Of a stretch of DNA of 38,844 bases, positions 1,682-8,388 are shown piece after piece. The DNA comes from Candidatus Woesearchaeota archaeon (GTDB lineage Archaea > Nanobdellota > Nanobdellia > SCGC-AAA011-G17 > JACPIM01). The notes beneath the pieces were generated by a model. It did not search any database and had not been told where the DNA came from. It worked only from the letters and a program-made list of their open reading frames with translations. The translations under genes and the position numbers were made by a program. The stretch lies in the NCBI GenBank assembly GCA_964513145.1, contig CAZELK010000007.1, positions 11,960 to 50,803 on the forward strand, in the 5' to 3' direction. Position 1 is the first letter of the stretch, and each line of letters starts with the position of its first letter.

Positions 1682-1996
1682 TTTTTTATTATAATTTAAA
1701 TCTAAAATATTCTTTTTTAAATTTTCTGAGATATCCGGCTTTGCACATAAATTGAGTTTTATCTGAAAAACTTCATTTACTTCCGTAAATTTTCCGGACT
1801 TCTCGTAAGATTTTCAAGAAATCCGGAAACCTTCTATAACCAGCTATTAATGACTGATTGATCTACTTTCTAATTAAAATAAAAGATTAAATATTTTAGA
1901 ATCTTACTGGTTTTAAATTAAAAAGAGGTAAATAAATTCACTATAACCAAGACAATAAAAACATCTGTAATTAATTTAACAAGTAATAAAAAAGAT

Positions 1997-3025
1997 TTGT
2001 TAGATTATGATTATGGTAATTATCAATTATGGATGATATTTGGAATTGATAATGGGTTATTAAGTTGTTTCAAAGCAGCAAAAGGTCACAAACAAAAAGT
2101 AATAAAATATAAAGAATATCCGCTTCCTTTAGATTCAAGATTTATTAAAGACTGGTTTAGAACAAGAGATACTAAATTAACCAAAAATTGGATTAAAATC
2201 CCCAATTCTAAAAGAAAAGGTCAGGGTATTTGGTTGCCATTAAAATTTCATAAAGAATTGCCTAAAAAATACAAATTAAAAGATTCTTTCCTAGTTAAAA
2301 GAAATAACAAATACTATATTCATTTTACTATAGAAATAGAAGCTCCTGAACAATACAAGCCTAAAAATGTAATTGGAATAGACTTGGGATTAAAAAATCC
2401 AGTTACTTTGGTTAATATTAATACAAGAAAAACCAAATTTTTAGGCAGAGAACTAAAGCAAGTTAAAGGAAAATATTATTATTTAAGAAAGAAATTAGGT
2501 AAAGAAAAAAAACTAAAACAAATTAAAAAAATAAAAGACAAGGAAAAGAGAAAAGTACATTCTGAGCTGCATAAATTATCTAAACAAATTGTAACTGAAG
2601 CTTATAATAATAAATCAGCAATAGTAATAGGAAAATTAAGTAATTTAAAGAAAAATAAAGGAAGAAAATTTAACAGAAAACTATCTTCATTTTCTTATTA
2701 TAAGTTAACTCAATTATTAGAATATAAATGTAAAAAAAAAGGAGTTCCTTTAATTAAAGTAAATGAAGCATATACAAGTAAAACTTGTCATGTTTGTAAC
2801 ATGATAGGTACAAGAAATAAAAACTGGTTTAAATGTAATAATTGTAAATATGAGGATAATGCAGACAGAAACGCTGCATTCAATATTGGAAAACGGGGTT
2901 TAAGCTATATGCTTGGATCAGGGGCAAATGCTTTTGCCCAGAAGCCTAACCAGATTAGGCAAGCACAAGAACCTTTTAAGAAAAGCCTTGGGAAAAACGA
3001 GGAAATTGTACAAATTTGTAATTAG
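1997..3025 (+). CDS. tnpB: TnpB RNA-guided nuclease with rearranged RuvC-II; start codon uncertain (frame open from 1922)
   Basis: RuvC-I IGIDLG, IVIGKL at the canonical E position, alternative E in NEAYTSK, zinc finger CHVC/CNNC, RuvC-III ADRNAA. Confidence 0.9.
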   Translation: MLDYDYGNYQLWMIFGIDNGLLSCFKAAKGHKQKVIKYKEYPLPLDSRFIKDWFRTRDTKLTKNWIKIPNSKRKGQGIWLPLKFHKELPKKYKLKDSFLVKRNNKYYIHFTIEIEAPEQYKPKNVIGIDLGLKNPVTLVNINTRKTKFLGRELKQVKGKYYYLRKKLGKEKKLKQIKKIKDKEKRKVHSELHKLSKQIVTEAYNNKSAIVIGKLSNLKKNKGRKFNRKLSSFSYYKLTQLLEYKCKKKGVPLIKVNEAYTSKTCHVCNMIGTRNKNWFKCNNCKYEDNADRNAAFNIGKRGLSYMLGSGANAFAQKPNQIRQAQEPFKKSLGKNEEIVQICN

Positions 3026-3056
3026 TATTAAAAAGGATTAATTTATGTGCAAAGCT
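2900..3056 (+). ncRNA. Putative omegaRNA scaffold overlapping the tnpB 3' end (boundaries approximate)
   Basis: Hairpins GGGCAAA/TTTGCCC (2922-2939) and GCCTAA/TTAGGC (2944-2960) followed by CAAGAACC, as at typical tnpB 3' ends. Confidence 0.5.
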
Positions 3057-3068
3057 GAGATATCCCTA

Positions 3069-3260
3069 TTATTCACCAAATGATATGGCCAATAATATTA
3101 AACCCCCTATGATTAATATTACTGAAATAACAGCCAGAGTATATTTTTCTTGAAGAATTGATGGTATTGCCCATGTGATACCTAATACAGTACTTATAAC
3201 TCCAGCCATAGCAAGTAGATTTCTTCTGGTTTTATTCATTATCTCACTAAATAATATCAT
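3069..3260 (-). CDS. Small two-TM membrane protein
   Basis: 63 aa, two hydrophobic helices, ATG start. Confidence 0.55.
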   Translation of the reverse strand: MILFSEIMNKTRRNLLAMAGVISTVLGITWAIPSILQEKYTLAVISVILIIGGLILLAISFGE

Positions 3261-3398
3261 ATATAAAAATTATTATAATACTTTCGTTCTTTTTTTCGGA
3301 AATATTTCGATTAAATCTGGTTTATCCGCAAACTTTTGACTATTAAAGAAAAACATTTTCTTTTAAAATAATATGTCCATTCCAATGTATTATTTTAA

Positions 3399-4307
3399 TT
3401 ATTGAATTTGGGTGGGTCCATATATTTTTGGTCTTTTGTGAGAAATTATTTTTACAAGATTTTTATGCACTAATTTGCTTAATTGCTTGCCAACGCTGCC
3501 TTCTGTAGTTTTCAAAAGCTCGGCTAATTCCTGGGCTGTCCTATTTGAATCCTTTAAAACGATTATTATATTTTCCTCCATTGGACTCAATGTTGTTTCT
3601 TTTACTTTTTCTTCTTTCTTAATCTTTAACAAACTTTGTACATCATTTATTGTTATTTCTTTTTTTCCTTTAAAATTAATACAAATTTTTTCACATGTTT
3701 CAAGAATCATTCTCGGGGTGTAATCTGCTTTTTCTATAATCAGGTTTATTGCTCCTTCTGTAAATGGGCATATCTTACCGCATCTTTTTTTTACCAGATC
3801 GAATGCGTTTTGCTCATTTAATTTAGTTAATTTTATAATTCTAGTACCAACTCTATGCCTGAAACCTTCTGGTATTTCTGGTTCTTGTCCTGGCTGGGCA
3901 AAGACTATACTCTTAATATGATTCTCATCAAAATGAAGCTTTAGTGCGTATCTAAACTCTTCATTTACTGATGCAGATTCATCTAATAATAAAACAGTAT
4001 TTTTTGGGTAATCAGAACCAAATAAGCGCCGGGATAATTTTGTATGATCATTTAGAAAATTTTTTATGCTGAAGTCTTTTTCAATAGTTTCCATATTTAG
4101 GTAAGCTATAAAATGATTTTTGAGATTATTTTCAAGCCATCTTAACAGGCTTGTTTTTCCAGCCCCAGATTCTCCAACTAAAAAACATACATCGCCGCTA
4201 GTTACATAATTTAAAAGCTGTTCTTTTTCTTGCTCAAAGTTTATAACAATTGGGCTTGGCTTTATAAAAAAGGGGTTAGATTTCCACCCATATGAGACGT
4301 ACCACAT
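3399..4307 (-). CDS. AAA ATPase with C-terminal winged-helix domain
   Basis: Walker A GESGAGKT, Walker B LLLDES, C-terminal TAQELAELLKTTEGSVGKQLSKL helix-turn-helix. Confidence 0.8.
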   Translation of the reverse strand: MWYVSYGWKSNPFFIKPSPIVINFEQEKEQLLNYVTSGDVCFLVGESGAGKTSLLRWLENNLKNHFIAYLNMETIEKDFSIKNFLNDHTKLSRRLFGSDYPKNTVLLLDESASVNEEFRYALKLHFDENHIKSIVFAQPGQEPEIPEGFRHRVGTRIIKLTKLNEQNAFDLVKKRCGKICPFTEGAINLIIEKADYTPRMILETCEKICINFKGKKEITINDVQSLLKIKKEEKVKETTLSPMEENIIIVLKDSNRTAQELAELLKTTEGSVGKQLSKLVHKNLVKIISHKRPKIYGPTQIQ

Positions 4308-4424
4308 TTTCTTAAGATATAACTAGGTTGATTAATAAGTATTTTTGTGATAAAACAGCAATAATCAAATAACACCTTATAAACAATAGTTTTAAATATG
4401 ATTTTTTGTAAGATTTTCGAGACT

Positions 4425-4485
4425 TTCGTAAACTTGCTGGACAAAAACTACTGGACAAGACAAAGACCTGCCTGGCACTTATATA
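4425..4485 (+). repeat. Shared promoter-proximal element, copy 1, with TATA box TTATATA (4479-4485)
   Basis: 4440-4473 matches the reverse complement of 8401-8434 at 33/34; 4425-4474 aligns with 17731-17779. Confidence 0.85.
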
Positions 4486-4509
4486 GTTCAAAGTCTTTCA
4501 TCAAAATTT

Positions 4510-5472
4510 ATGAAAAGACTAGCACAAGAAAATAAAGAATCTATCAAAAAATTAGCTAATGAAGGTTTAAGTTTAAGGGAAATTCAGAAAATAACAAAGA
4601 TCCCATTAAGTACTTTACAATATAATTTAAATAAAAATAGTGGTCGAAAAAGAACAAAAGAAATTATAATTCCCGAATCTGATTTTTTAAGGGGTGAAAT
4701 AATTGGCGCTTTTACTGGAGATGGCTGTTATAAATATACAAAGAGAGGTAGGTCTAGAAACCATTTAATTACATTTACATTATCTTTTGAAAAAGATAAA
4801 TAATATTGTGATTATCTTGTATCTTTATTGAAGAAATTTGATCTTAAAGTTAGTGTATATATTAAGAAATTAAAAAATAAACCCACAGCATTTGAAATAA
4901 GAACATATTCTTTAAATTTCATAATCTTTCTTAAGAACTACCTAATATGGGAGAATAAAAAATTATCCATAAACAAAAACTGAAATTCCAAAACTAAAAC
5001 TTATTCTGTTCATTTAAAACAATCTGTGGAAAATTATTCGGAGGAATTTTTGTTGGGGTTCGCAAGAGGATTAATGGATACTGATGGTTTTGTTAGTAAT
5101 AGAGTTGGATGTGGAGTAGTTTCGGAAAGATTAATTGATAATTTAAAAGAGATACTCTCAAAAAATTATATTAAATCTATTATTAAAATAATTAAAAGAC
5201 CACTAAATAGAAGAGATTTGTATTTATTAACAATTGATAAAAGAAATTTAAATAATTATGAACAAAAAATAGGTTTTAGCAATTTAAGAAAAAAGAAAGA
5301 ACTTCTTAAAAAAATATTAAAAATGAGGCCGCCAGGATTTGAACTTTCCCAATTGTTTTTCAATTTCTGGGTCGCAAGGTGGTTTGCTTTTTTTATAAAG
5401 TCCCAAACCTCGAAGTCTAACCAAGTTGGCCCATTAAAGTCTAGCCTACGGCTATATGCTTCGAAACAGTAG
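4510..5472 (+). pseudogene. HTH plus double-motif LAGLIDADG homing endonuclease with two in-frame stops
   Basis: N-terminal HTH (GLSLREIQKITKIPLSTLQY), motifs IIGAFTGDG and FARGLMDTDG in one frame; TAA 4801-4803 and TGA 4981-4983; frame reads antisense through tRNA-Pro. Confidence 0.85.
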
Positions 5473-5484
5473 TTTTAAAGTCCC
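5324..5484 (-). tRNA. tRNA-Pro(UGG) with four introns (3/4, 15/16, 37/38, 52/53)
   Basis: Exons 5484-5482, 5452-5441, 5425-5402, 5380-5367 and 5344-5324 join to a 74-nt cloverleaf with acceptor GGGGCCG/CGGCCTC and anticodon loop TTTGGGA. Each junction folds as a strict or relaxed BHB. One D-stem mismatch. Confidence 0.88.
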
Positions 5485-5605
5485 ATACCTTGCTAACTGA
5501 TACTGACTGCCTCATTATTTTAACCGACCAATCTTATTTATAAATCTATTTATGCTAATTTAAAACAAACAAAAGCTTTATAAGAATATTTAAAAGTAAA
5601 AAAAT

Positions 5606-5815
5606 ATGCCAACTAAGAAAGTCAAATCAGCAGGTAGATTTGGAGCAAGATATGGTAAAAGAGTAAGGCAGAGGGTTGTTGATATAGAAAAAAAGCAAAG
5701 AAAAAAACATGAGTGCCCTTATTGTTATAATCTTGGTGCAAAAAGAATAGCCCCAGGAATATGGTTTTGCAAAAAATGTGACTTAAAGTTCACAGGAAAG
5801 GCCTATGAAATATGA
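5606..5815 (+). CDS. rpl37ae: 50S ribosomal protein L37Ae (eL43)
   Basis: SAGRFGARYG, CPYC...CKKC zinc ribbon. Confidence 0.97.
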   Translation: MPTKKVKSAGRFGARYGKRVRQRVVDIEKKQRKKHECPYCYNLGAKRIAPGIWFCKKCDLKFTGKAYEI

Positions 5816-5949
5816 GTTTATACAAATGTTTTGAATGTGGAAAACAAATAAAAGTTGAACATCTAAAGAAAAAAGTAAGATGCGTTTATTGTGGGAGCAA
5901 AATTCTATACAAGCCCAGACAAACTTCTACAGTTATAAGAGCAAAATGA
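5812..5949 (+). CDS. rpoP: RNA polymerase subunit P (Rpo12); not in the supplied ORF track
   Basis: Manual translation MSLYKCFECGKQIKVEHLKKKVRCVYCGSKILYKPRQTSTVIRAK; ATGA overlaps on both sides; conserved position. Confidence 0.93.
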   Translation: MSLYKCFECGKQIKVEHLKKKVRCVYCGSKILYKPRQTSTVIRAK

Positions 5950-6281
5950 AGAAAGAAACTGAAGAAAAAATAGAACAAATACAATTAGTAGAGCAAAATT
6001 TACAAAATCTTCTTGGGCAGAAACAAACTTTTCAATCACAACTTCTAGAAATAGAAAATGCACTGGAAGAATTAACAAAAAGCAAAGACAAAGTTTACAA
6101 AATTGTAGGTTCTATAATGGTTTTGTCAGAAAGAAGTGATGTGGAAAAATATTTAAATTCTAAAAAGGAAATAATTGAACTTAGAATTAAAAATTTAGAC
6201 AAACAAGAAAACAAATTAAAAGAAAAAGTTAATGAATTTCAACAAGAAATTTTAAAAGAATTAAAAAATAAAGAGGCGTAG
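5946..6281 (+). CDS. pfdB: Prefoldin beta subunit
   Basis: Coiled coil with VYKIVGSIMV hairpin; start at the ATG overlapping the rpoP stop. Confidence 0.92.
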   Translation: MKKETEEKIEQIQLVEQNLQNLLGQKQTFQSQLLEIENALEELTKSKDKVYKIVGSIMVLSERSDVEKYLNSKKEIIELRIKNLDKQENKLKEKVNEFQQEILKELKNKEA

Positions 6282-6282
6282 T

Positions 6283-6534
6283 ATGCCTGATGAAAAATTA
6301 AATGAAATAATCGACATATTATTACAAATTGAAGGTGATTTTAGCATTCCCAAGAACATAAGATTTAGAATTAAGAATGCTATTACTGCCTTGAAAGATG
6401 GTGATCAAAGTATTGGTCTTAAAGTGAATAAGTCATTACAGGAATTAGATGCCTTGGATGAAGAGTCAAATATACCTTCTTTTACAAGAACACAAATATG
6501 GAATGTGGTAAGCTCTTTAGAAGGCATGGTTTAA
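6283..6534 (+). CDS. UPF0147 family protein
   Basis: DFSIPKNIR ... NIPSFTRTQIWNVVSSLE. Confidence 0.88.
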   Translation: MPDEKLNEIIDILLQIEGDFSIPKNIRFRIKNAITALKDGDQSIGLKVNKSLQELDALDEESNIPSFTRTQIWNVVSSLEGMV

Positions 6535-6649
6535 TCTTTTATTTACTATATTTGTTGATACTATACATTCCAGTATTTATTTTTACTTAAATCTCCCAAA
6601 GTATAGAAATATTTATATATCTATTTCAGCATTATTTAAAAAGATTATA

Positions 6650-7048
6650 ATGGTAGTATTTTCAAGAATAAAAAATAAAATCCTGGGTGTGCCTGAAGAG
6701 GATGAACTAATAGATGACTATGTCGAGATAGACACTAAAAAAGATTTTTCTGGTGCAAAAACTAAAATTGTTGTTAAACCATTCATAATCCAAGAATTTA
6801 CTGATATAAAAGAACCCTTAGATGCTTTAAGAGAGGGCTATACAATTGCTTTAGTAAATATTAAAGCACTGAAAGACAAAGATATTGTAGAATTAAAAAG
6901 AGCAGTGACTAAGTTAAAGAAGACTTGTGATGCTATTGAGGGAGATATTGCTGGATTTGGTGATGACTGGATTGTTGTTACGCCTTCATTTGCACATGTT
7001 TACAGGAACACACAAACAGAAGAATTAAGCCCTAATTCTAATGAATAA
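6650..7048 (+). CDS. sepF: Cell division protein SepF
   Basis: LREGYTIALVNI...CDAIEGDIAGFGDDWIVVTP. Confidence 0.9.
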   Translation: MVVFSRIKNKILGVPEEDELIDDYVEIDTKKDFSGAKTKIVVKPFIIQEFTDIKEPLDALREGYTIALVNIKALKDKDIVELKRAVTKLKKTCDAIEGDIAGFGDDWIVVTPSFAHVYRNTQTEELSPNSNE

Positions 7049-7270
7049 TTCTCATTTAAAGTGAAGCTCCCAGTCACAGCCACGTTTTGATTAAACTTTT
7101 TCCAAAAAAGTTTACTGTGTGGCATCCTTTTAAAATAACGTTTTCCGTTAACGCTTTTCTCAAAAGGGTTAGGGTTCTTGGTTCATTGAGTCAGAATAAG
7201 TCTTGTTTTTTCCCAAGGCTTTTTCATAAAAAGGCTTTCCCCAAGCGTTACTTCCTGTCCTTCCGACAGT
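7041..7270 (-). ncRNA. Putative omegaRNA; scaffold ends at 7061, guide from ~7060-7041 (boundaries approximate)
   Basis: Structured region overlapping the tnpB 3' end and finishing at TTCAC; established TnpB architecture. Confidence 0.55.
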
Positions 7271-8365
7271 AGCTTTTTTTAATATATTTAAAGCGGAATT
7301 ATAATCTCTGTTAATGTTTAATCCACAATCACAATTATGTTCTCTATTAAACAACTCTTTTTTAACTATTTTATTACAATTACTGCATTCCTGGGTTGTT
7401 CCTCTCGGGTCTACTTTTATTACTTTAATACCAGCACTTTCAGCCTTGTACTCAAGCATTTGTATAAATTTAAACCATGAAGCATCTGAAATTGATCTTG
7501 ATAAATATTTATTTTGAATCATATTTTGAATTTGTAAATTTTCTACAGCAATTAAATTGTAATTATTTATATAATATCTGCTTAAATTATGCAGAAAATC
7601 ATTTCTTTGGTTTTCTATTTTCTCATGTAATCTGGCAACTTTTAATCTTTGCTTGTTTCTATTATTGCTTCCCTTTTGTTTTTTGGATAATTTTCTTTGT
7701 TCAATCTTTAATTTTTCCAAAGATTTATTCAGAAATTTATGATTTGGAAAATAATTTTCATCACTATCAGAAATGTAATTTGTTAAACCTAAATCTATTC
7801 CAATTTGTTTGTTAATTTTTTGTTTAATTTCTTTTCTATCTATCTCACAAGATAAACAAGCAAACCATTTATTAGAATAATATTTTTTAATCGTGACTTG
7901 TTTTATTTTACCTTTTGATTCTCTATGTGTTCTTATTGGAATTTCTCCTATTTTAGACAAATGCAGCTTATTTAATCTTTTATTAACTTTAATTAATTTA
8001 AAACCAGACTGATTATATGTAATTGACTTAAAGCTATTTTTAGATTTAAATCTTAATCTCCCTGTTTTCTTTCCATTTTTCTTTAATTTTGATAAGGCAC
8101 TTAAATTACTGAATAATCTGTAAGATTCATATTGTAATGTCTTGGAATAAGCCTTGTTTAATTCTTGATAACATATTTTTAGATCAGGGATTATTCCTTG
8201 TATTTGGGATTTATCTATTTCTTTTTGATTATTTAATTCCTGCAATAAGGTATTATAAGTAAATCTGCACAAGTCTATGTGCTCTAATAATATATTCTCC
8301 TGGGTTTTACTGGGATATATTCTGAATTTGAAAGTTCTTTGTATTTTATTCTCTTTTCTCTTCAT
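7169..8365 (-). CDS. tnpB: TnpB RNA-guided nuclease with canonical D-E-D triad
   Basis: N-terminal TFKFRIYP, IGIDLG, IAVENL, CSNC/CDCG zinc finger, RDYNSALN. Confidence 0.95.
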   Translation of the reverse strand: MKRKENKIQRTFKFRIYPSKTQENILLEHIDLCRFTYNTLLQELNNQKEIDKSQIQGIIPDLKICYQELNKAYSKTLQYESYRLFSNLSALSKLKKNGKKTGRLRFKSKNSFKSITYNQSGFKLIKVNKRLNKLHLSKIGEIPIRTHRESKGKIKQVTIKKYYSNKWFACLSCEIDRKEIKQKINKQIGIDLGLTNYISDSDENYFPNHKFLNKSLEKLKIEQRKLSKKQKGSNNRNKQRLKVARLHEKIENQRNDFLHNLSRYYINNYNLIAVENLQIQNMIQNKYLSRSISDASWFKFIQMLEYKAESAGIKVIKVDPRGTTQECSNCNKIVKKELFNREHNCDCGLNINRDYNSALNILKKATVGRTGSNAWGKPFYEKALGKNKTYSDSMNQEP

Positions 8366-8388
8366 AAATTATTAATAAAATAAATTAG

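Follow-up and report, generated by a model that had tools for sequence, protein, structure and literature searches.

The stretch of DNA analysed here (the window, 38,844 nucleotides of contig CAZELK010000007.1 of a Candidatus Woesearchaeota archaeon) carries at positions 1737-3056 an IS903-like element of 1,320 bp whose sole gene is tnpB. The source genome is a 0.98-Mb assembly of 28-30% GC and 98.8% completeness, and the stretch was found in five groundwater metagenome DNA runs. On the left the element is bounded by the terminal inverted repeat GGCTTTGCACATAAATT (1737-1753, + strand), which was located with a repeat finder and recurs unchanged in elements from several archaeal phyla and from some bacteria, and on the right by AATTTATGTGCAAAGCT (3040-3056, + strand; also written ...GCAAAGCT), placed by the repeat finder and by the RNA alignment described below. 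The core of the inverted repeat consists of two 16-nt arms of perfect complementarity (1738-1753 and 3040-3055), and once the terminal bases are counted the 17-nt ends agree at 16 of 17 positions. Immediately outside lie the two copies of a 9-bp target-site duplication, GAGATATCC, at 1728-1736 and 3057-3065. The exact direct repeat returned by the repeat finder is longer, 11 nt (CTGAGATATCC, 1726-1736 and 3055-3065), because the terminal CT of the right end coincides with the left flank; 9 bp is nevertheless the true duplication length, since duplications of 9 bp also flank three copies in G013, a congeneric genome, and further members of the end family. The right boundary was confirmed by contigs of other insertions in the source metagenome, which share the right end and split from the window copy exactly at 3055-3057. 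An earlier note on this DNA had described a 1320-bp unit with 17-bp inverted repeats and a perfect direct repeat, containing only tnpB and lacking a right end of the IS605 type (TCAC/TCAA); this description holds, and no such terminus occurs inside the element, whereas its IS605-type relatives do have one.

Other copies with different 9-bp duplications, for which the earlier note had recommended a search, were found. The three copies in G013 are 76-78% identical at the amino-acid level, have the same ends and carry each their own duplication (TTTAAGAAG/CTTCTTAAA, TTAATAACT and GATTTATAT), and metagenomic copies with the same ends encode proteins of 65-79% identity; among the latter, L134 retains 8 of the 9 duplicated positions and L140 has a 9-bp duplication next to a left end that is 2 nt shorter. 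In these tnpB-bearing copies the left end begins with GGC or a close variant and the right end finishes with ...AGCT (...AAGUU in L139). A solo right end of 31 nt, identical to window 3025-3055, was also seen at 30409-30440 of contig 2 of the source genome. It has a TATA-like flank, occupies the promoter region of a gene for a RadA/KaiC-like ATPase and was probably left behind by another element of the family. In metagenome run X4 the core of the guide-RNA scaffold (2874-2940) reaches a word depth of about 319, compared with roughly 8-10 for the flanks, and the same groundwater community therefore contains many related elements from other organisms.

The tnpB frame is open from 1922 to 3025 (+ strand; residues are numbered from 1940). 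Its product matches the Pfam models Cas12f1-like_TNB (PF07282, 8.8e-23) and OrfB_IS605 (PF01385) and the NCBIfam model guided_TnpB (195.7 bits against a cut-off of 100, 1.5e-57), and its matches in the PDB are Cas12f and TnpB. Likewise, an AlphaFold model (predicted local distance difference test, pLDDT, 81.7; residues 330-361 disordered) has Cas12f, ISFba1 TnpB, Fanzor2 and ISDra2 TnpB as its top Foldseek matches. Asp148, Asp309, Glu276 and the four cysteines of the CxxC...CxxC zinc finger are invariant in an alignment of 18 homologues, and in all 18 the canonical RuvC-II glutamate is replaced by glycine (Gly231, in the window motif AIVIGKL, which aligns to mEdL of AsCas12f). Glu276 stands 45 residues past Gly231; in the model Gly231 closes beta-4 and Glu276 lies just after beta-5. 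To judge from the alignment and the model, this pattern is the TnpB2/RIIr arrangement, in which the replacement glutamate is found about 45 residues away and which is active in TvTnpB and in Fanzors (PMC10530073); a rearranged RuvC-II is also described for the large RIIr-5 branch (PMC10691335). Compact TnpB2 enzymes of 350 residues with a defined scaffold end would be candidates for genome editing.

The predicted omega RNA scaffold and the right inverted repeat

Thirteen sequences were aligned from position 2891 of the window, or its equivalent, to the right terminus of the element. Three stems on the + strand precede the terminal structure. Stem 1 (2897-2905/2911-2919) has nine pairs that are formed in all 13 sequences, two of them with compensatory changes; stem 2 (2922-2927/2934-2939) presents the loop G2930-U2933; and stem 3 (2944-2949/2955-2960), whose insert varies in length, shows compensatory changes in each of its six pairs. 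The last stem, found with RNAalifold and in the single-sequence fold, encloses a variable hairpin and is closed between an invariant GCACA (2963-2967) and UGUGC at 3046-3050, which lies inside the right inverted repeat. Overall, 96.4% of the cells of the scaffold are paired and 10 pairs have compensatory changes, a level that none of 500 shuffles and no slid register approaches, and the fold of the single sequence gives the same helices. Over the whole window no Rfam family reached its gathering threshold, and 1700-3120 gave only chance-level matches at E up to 5.

The outer bases of the right repeat are likewise engaged in the predicted RNA. Positions 3052-3055 (AAGC) form the 3' strand of a pseudoknot with the loop of stem 2 (2930-2933), and its four pairs are retained in 13 of 13 sequences. 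In fact, L139, the sole copy whose repeat ends in ...AAGUU, is also the sole one with the loop ACUU, a double change from G-C to A-U. The same correspondence is found in two more distant homologues. In L025, from Micrarchaeota (37% identity), the repeat is the same except that it ends in AAAGCA, the loop reads UUGCUUU and the last stem GCGCAU/AUGUGC; in L156 (32% identity, 40% over the best-matching segment) the repeat is a different one, GGCTCTTGTGC..., with the duplication AAGGCTAAC, the loop GGUUCU faces the terminus AGAACC, and the entire terminal hairpin is contained within the repeat. When every loop was compared with every terminus, the cognate helices were the longest (4-6.5 bp), those with unrelated termini being mostly of 2-4 bp. 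These pairings were read by position and then tested, an automated pseudoknot finder having chosen other helices in the window, L139, L147 and L160.

IS605-type relatives of the nuclease (33-38% identity) have the same stems without these repeats. In them the loop of stem 2 complements a terminus of GTTCAC, GGTCAA, GGTCAC or AGTCAC, and the conservation between related copies ends there; one of them, L147, has a Y1 TnpA gene immediately upstream. In the tree, repeat-type and IS605-type TnpBs are intermixed, but a single clade of the repeat type is not rejected by the approximately unbiased (AU) test (p = 0.075). Prokaryotic omega RNAs characteristically have, next to the guide, a pseudoknot to which the scaffold contributes its 3' end (PMC13565253). 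As the pseudoknot strand of the IS605-type relatives ends at the element boundary, the guide of the window element is expected to start at the duplication, and the most economical reading is that the predicted scaffold ends at 3056 and that the guide runs from 3057 onward through the right copy of GAGATATCC into the flank (3057-3076, + strand, assigned by homology). The earlier note had proposed that the omega RNA runs through the right inverted repeat and that duplication plus flank becomes the guide. At the level of sequence comparison both proposals gain support, the former from the use of the repeat by the last stem and the pseudoknot and from loops that track the ends in L139, L025 and L156, the latter from the comparison with the IS605-type relatives.

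The transposon shell

The origin of the ends was traced by searching a 16-mer of the end in one genome per species. The full 17-mer was found in many archaeal metagenome-assembled genomes (Woese-, Nano-, Micr- and Hadarchaeota and Thermoplasmata) and in some bacterial ones (Binatia, Planctomycetaceae, Chloroflexia), and the same ends with 9-bp duplications bound elements carrying a DDE_Tnp_1 transposase, an element with a restriction-modification gene, and miniature inverted-repeat transposable elements (MITEs). Transposases of the DDE_Tnp_1/IS5-family kind stand between or beside these ends at L020, L086, L046 and the G013 locus L215. The L020 element of Thermoplasmata (1703-7003, 5.3 kb) has a perfect 9-bp duplication, TACTTTAAT, and encodes a 402-aa DDE_Tnp_1 transposase, whose frame reads through the right repeat, as well as unrelated cargo, consisting of two genes of unknown kind and one for an FG-GAP repeat protein; at L086, from Planctomycetaceae, the DDE_Tnp_1 transposase between the same ends is interrupted by an IS3 element. 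The 3.2-kb element L045 of Hadarchaeota (2717-5901; perfect 9-bp duplication CTCCAGATG) has as its sole gene a 981-aa restriction-modification gene of the Eco57I/MmeI type. The shell takes different selfish cargos. The MITEs (165-198 bp) have nothing else than their ends in common with the window element. One of them, L110 (5704-5901, 198 bp), is an internal deletion of a TnpB element of the L025 (Micrarchaeota) type, in which the opening codons of tnpB survive together with the 3' portion of the guide-RNA scaffold.

The best NCBIfam model for the end-linked transposases is NF033579 (IS5 family), with 124 bits and thus under its cut-off of 140, and in a tblastn search of a plasmid collection they matched only IS5-family transposases, at 20-27% identity. 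Their nearest annotated relatives are transposases of the ISAba10 family (about 22% identity), and ISAba10, read directly, has the ends GGCTTTGTTGCATAAAT and a 9-bp duplication; IS903 itself was not matched in the plasmid collection. Since the same ends flank DDE_Tnp_1 transposases, and since ISAba10 shares this type of end and the length of the duplication, the shell is, as far as sequences tell, that of an IS5-family, IS903-like transposon and not that of an IS605 element. The earlier note had reached the same assignment from the inverted repeat and the 9-bp duplications of IS903, and had suggested looking for an autonomous DDE transposase with the same ends; in L020 a DDE_Tnp_1 transposase does lie between such ends. 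Its alternative match, the ISPna2 group of IS1595, was rejected on the grounds of the duplication (9 bp instead of 8 bp), of the DDE_Tnp_1 transposases and of the lack of any IS1595 model among the matches. Chance was likewise rejected as an explanation.

As to the enzyme that would move the tnpB element, G013 encodes a 345-aa transposase of the family next to a family right end, the left end of this locus not having been found. The source genome has, at 4597-5829 of contig 4, an intact SWIM+DDE_Tnp_1 homologue of 410 aa that is 41-46% identical to the end-linked transposases; its reading as a pseudogene was discarded, given that the three stops lie past the natural C-terminus. This gene could be either a transposase acting in trans or a domesticated gene, and mobilisation of the tnpB element in trans by a SWIM+DDE_Tnp_1 transposase of the family is the most likely route.

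Proposed mechanism and alternative explanations

Based on these comparisons, we hypothesize, with a probability of roughly 0.7, that the element is a non-autonomous IS903-like DDE element whose right end has been built into the omega RNA of its TnpB, and whose guide is read from the flank of each insertion. The element would derive from an IS5-family transposon with 17-nt GGCTTTG... ends and a 9-bp duplication, and would carry as its sole cargo a TnpB2-type nuclease with its omega RNA; a family SWIM+DDE_Tnp_1 transposase, such as the intact homologue encoded elsewhere in the source genome, would move it in trans. Transcription of the omega RNA would proceed from the 3' end of tnpB and cross the right inverted repeat, whose inner half would close the last scaffold stem and whose terminal bases would form the guide-adjacent pseudoknot, and the duplication with the right flank, GAGAUAUCCCUAUUAUUCAC, would serve as guide. 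The ribonucleoprotein (RNP) is then expected to cut the unoccupied site, where the full guide match is preceded by the left flank ...TTTCT, and to spare the occupied site, whose left junction offers a match of 9 nt only and whose right junction has the repeat in front of the match. Cleavage of empty sites would favour retention or spread of the element through recombinational repair. In such a design each transposition would reprogram the guide to the new duplication and flank, a DDE repeat doubling as the guide-adjacent part of an RNA, and it bears on how an RNA-guided homing nuclease can serve a cut-and-paste DDE transposon with a long, non-specific duplication.

Several observations speak against this proposal or narrow its basis. 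On the side of the RNA, the pairs of the last stem are invariant and that stem accordingly has no covariation, the pseudoknot of the window subfamily is just 4-5 bp long, and its covariation amounts to one double change in the close family and two distant homologues; moreover, the locus is listed in five DNA runs but in no RNA run. As regards the target, the stretch of 5 nt before the duplication is rich in T, with TTT in 7 of 11 copies, but shows no strict motif that could act as target-adjacent motif (TAM), and an empty allele was found neither in the congeneric genomes G011-G013 nor as a clean empty-site joint in the metagenome contigs. On the side of mobility, a tblastn search with three family transposases revealed none in cis at 80 metagenomic TnpB loci, no family ends are recognisable around the 410-aa homologue, and the window element is a single copy in its genome, one that is possibly decaying. 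Finally, a TAA at 1919-1921 precedes the frame, which has no ATG, GTG or TTG where the homologues begin with MKKEIKLTK. The ORC-like gene adjoining the element is conserved in G011-G013, the region beside it not being syntenic. A contig joint from 1729 to 3008 in run X3, with a side of 21 nt, was considered as an empty site and was not trusted, the predicted junction being 1736/3066.

Some of these observations are what would be expected if both the shell and the nuclease of the window copy were inactive in the source genome, whatever the family does elsewhere, an explanation compatible with the flank-guided mechanism. To the single copy, the missing standard start codon and the homologue without family ends may be added the lack of any empty allele or polymorphism in four metagenome runs, and the window tnpB may indeed be impaired or decaying. 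Nevertheless, the open frame of 367 codons preserves every catalytic and zinc-finger residue, the two copies of the duplication are identical, the ends agree at 16 of 17 positions and every RNA helix is preserved. Translation might still begin at the first standard start codon, the TTG at 1997, or at a non-standard one. A dead relic is conceivable, but the less likely case.

We consider it very improbable that the arrangement is a simple nesting, in which an IS1341/IS605-type tnpB element, complete with ends and a guide of its own, would have landed inside an IS903-like MITE and the repeats would be irrelevant to TnpB. The earlier note had named, as evidence for such an insertion, copies lacking tnpB with recognisable IS605 ends nested inside; MITEs with the same ends do exist, and the solo right end elsewhere in the source genome spans precisely the segment from the tnpB stop codon to the terminus. 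However, no internal IS605 terminus was found, the MITEs share only their ends with the element, and L110 proved to be a deletion derivative of a TnpB element. In addition, the mere 31 nt past the stop codon are taken up by the pseudoknot strand and by the last stem, the stem 2 loop complements the repeat terminus and co-varies with it in L139, L025 and L156, and the layout is retained in homologues of merely 32-37% identity. The original capture of tnpB may well have been of the nested kind. An improbable alternative, too, is a fixed guide, where the scaffold would end before the repeat and the repeat itself, AAUUUAUGUGCAAAGCU, would direct the RNP to bind or cut the ends of the family, for instance in regulating its siblings or in competing with them. 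The position of the repeat directly after the last variable hairpin and the occurrence of the ends in many elements of the community would suit such a role, and exapted TnpBs with regulatory functions are known (PMC10691335). Yet the last stem and the pseudoknot, both of them conserved, tie up the repeat and mirror the hairpin and pseudoknot at the terminus of the IS605-type relatives, where the guide follows the pseudoknot strand; different elements have no common TAM-like motif before the repeat; and in its catalytic residues the protein agrees with active TnpB2 enzymes.

Known systems and insertion sites

TnpB is the ancestor of Cas12, and its spread is usually explained through IS605 and IS607, which excise scarlessly. 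Insertion-sequence (IS) ends that surround a passenger gene without a transposase and are accompanied by a duplication, as in the present element, are familiar from mobile insertion cassettes and MITEs. In contrast to such cassettes, the predicted passenger RNA is here structurally fused to the IS end, and the cargo is therefore not a neutral load. With ISAba10 of the IS5 family the family shares ends that begin with GGCTTTG and continue ...ATAAAT, a 9-bp duplication and a DDE_Tnp_1 frame that runs into the right repeat. It differs from IS903 and ISAba10 in its archaeal transposases, which reach only about 22% identity with ISAba10-family proteins, have an N-terminal SWIM finger and fall short of the NCBIfam IS5 cut-off, and in that the family often has a cargo, be it TnpB, a restriction-modification gene or others.

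The concept of DDE-borne and solo TnpBs has been known since 2023, when Altae-Tran et al. (PMC10691335) reported the branches DDE-1 to DDE-6, each of which has inverted terminal repeats, as well as solo TnpBs bounded by the same ends. They suggested that the guide mechanisms are related, on the ground that no more than 250 bp separate the end of tnpB from that of the transposon. The window element belongs with these, having repeats shared with DDE-transposase elements and a tnpB stop codon 31 nt from its end. The common features are a tnpB between symmetrical DDE repeats, its 3' end within 250 bp of the element end and an IS5-family partner, and, with the solo TnpBs, the presumed mobilisation in trans. 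A 2026 review lists ISL2, IS630 and IS1031 as the DDE partners of TnpB and discusses the rarity of such pairings in prokaryotes (PMC13565253). Here, by contrast, the partner is IS903-like, with GGCTTTG... ends and a 9-bp duplication, as opposed to duplications of 2-3 bp in ISL2 and IS1031 and TA in IS630, and the hosts are DPANN and other archaea. In the main text of PMC10691335 no description was found of an inverted repeat acting as last stem and pseudoknot strand or of insertion close to a TATA box. In the texts consulted we found no description of three aspects, namely the IS903-like partner with its 9-bp duplication, the repeat as scaffold stem and pseudoknot with matching changes in the loop, and the oriented insertion close to a TATA box that is treated below.

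Elements of the IS200/IS605 family have neither terminal inverted repeats nor target duplications, are delimited by subterminal hairpins and insert 3' of a tetra- or pentanucleotide (PMC13565253). With these and the IS1341-type elements, including that of TvTnpB (PMC10530073), the window element shares a homologous nuclease (33-38% identity to the sampled relatives) with a rearranged RuvC-II, and an omega RNA with three stems, a terminal hairpin and a guide-adjacent pseudoknot. Unlike them, it lacks subterminal hairpin ends and the TCAC/TCAA terminus and has inverted repeats and a 9-bp duplication instead, the pseudoknot strand being the terminus of a DDE repeat; no Y1 transposase gene is present in the element (a genome-wide Y1 search of the source genome was not run). 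A further parallel is with Fanzor1 in eukaryotic DDE transposons (Mariner, hAT, MuDR and others; PMC3627910, PMC10432273, PMC13565253), where a nuclease of the TnpB family also resides in cut-and-paste elements with repeats and duplications and where the RNA overlaps the right end. The Fanzor1 RNA, however, has lost the 3' pseudoknot, and its scaffold includes a short and specific 3' duplication (PMC13565253), whereas here the pseudoknot is kept and a non-specific duplication of 9 bp would form part of the guide. The family may accordingly represent a prokaryotic counterpart of Fanzor1-type arrangements in which the pseudoknot has been retained, with a concrete and testable design.

Another feature of the family is its placement. 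In the window, a TATA-box-like hexamer, TTTAAA (1716-1721, + strand), lies 12 nt upstream of the duplication, and a hexamer TATAAA, TTTAAA, TAAAAA or TATATA is found at exactly -21 to -16 from the left end in all 11 TnpB elements with a readable left flank (the window copy, L010, L013, L014 and left flanks within L133-L144); no mirror motif exists to the right of these 11 elements. The same box, on one side only, was found in 18 other archaeal members of the end family, comprising MITEs, the restriction-modification element and transposase-bearing elements, some of them in genomes of about 50% GC; box-flanked loci of this kind include L016, L020, L033, L037, L045, L056, L058, L080, L085, L095, L109, L110, L118, L132 and L215. 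Bacterial copies of the end family have no such box. Every TnpB element has its box on the tnpB-upstream side; the L020 element and the transposase locus of G013 have theirs past the transposase gene, on its downstream side. Of 12 TnpB copies, seven (L010, L013, L134, L136, L139, L143, L158) have a host gene on the same strand that begins 3-65 nt past the right end; judged by their N-terminal sequences alone, such genes include a FEN-1 flap endonuclease-like, an FKBP-type isomerase-like and a helicase-like gene. With a TATA box on one side and a gene start on the other, the family therefore sits between promoter and gene start, a position which suggests promoter-directed, oriented integration, and the host genes, now separated from their TATA box, may rely for expression on read-through out of the element.

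Taking this tentatively one step further, we may speculate that the family integrates at a set distance and in one orientation immediately past TATA boxes, its duplication occupying +13 to +21 counted from the first base of the box, and probably recognises promoters to which TBP/TFB is bound, much as TFIIIB is recognised by yeast Ty3; that the TnpB derivatives rebuilt their omega RNA around the DDE repeat as terminal stem and pseudoknot; that oriented insertion brings a T-rich, TAM-like flank next to the duplication, which lets TnpB home to empty promoters; and that read-through keeps the displaced host gene expressed. No description of TATA-proximal, oriented insertion was found in the literature for this kind of element. 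If confirmed, the one-sided placement would amount to a promoter-targeted integration system in archaea, for which we likewise found no description.

The non-coding region to the left of tnpB (1754-1939, + strand) contains, according to the repeat finder and the sequence itself, a hairpin (1791-1808/1812-1829), an AT-rich TATA-like stretch and a GAGGT just 5' of the frame, and a promoter-like cassette is present in this region of homologous copies, consistent with a promoter-like function. In the G013 copies the cassette is repeated and reads TTCACTGGACAAA...GGACCTGCCTAG...CTTATAA. The window contains a second, unrelated tnpB of the canonical type, with the glutamate of VENL present (7169-8368, - strand), and upstream of it a motif ...ACTGGTCAAGACAAAGACCTGCCTAG...CTTATA resembles the G013 cassette; different selfish genes therefore appear to share a promoter cassette. 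Beside the counterpart of the ORC/Cdc6-like gene that neighbours the element, in two congeneric genomes (L226:1280-1460 and L227:1290-1450), about eight copies of the motif (A)TGTAAGTA(T) are found, which may be repeats of the origin-recognition type.

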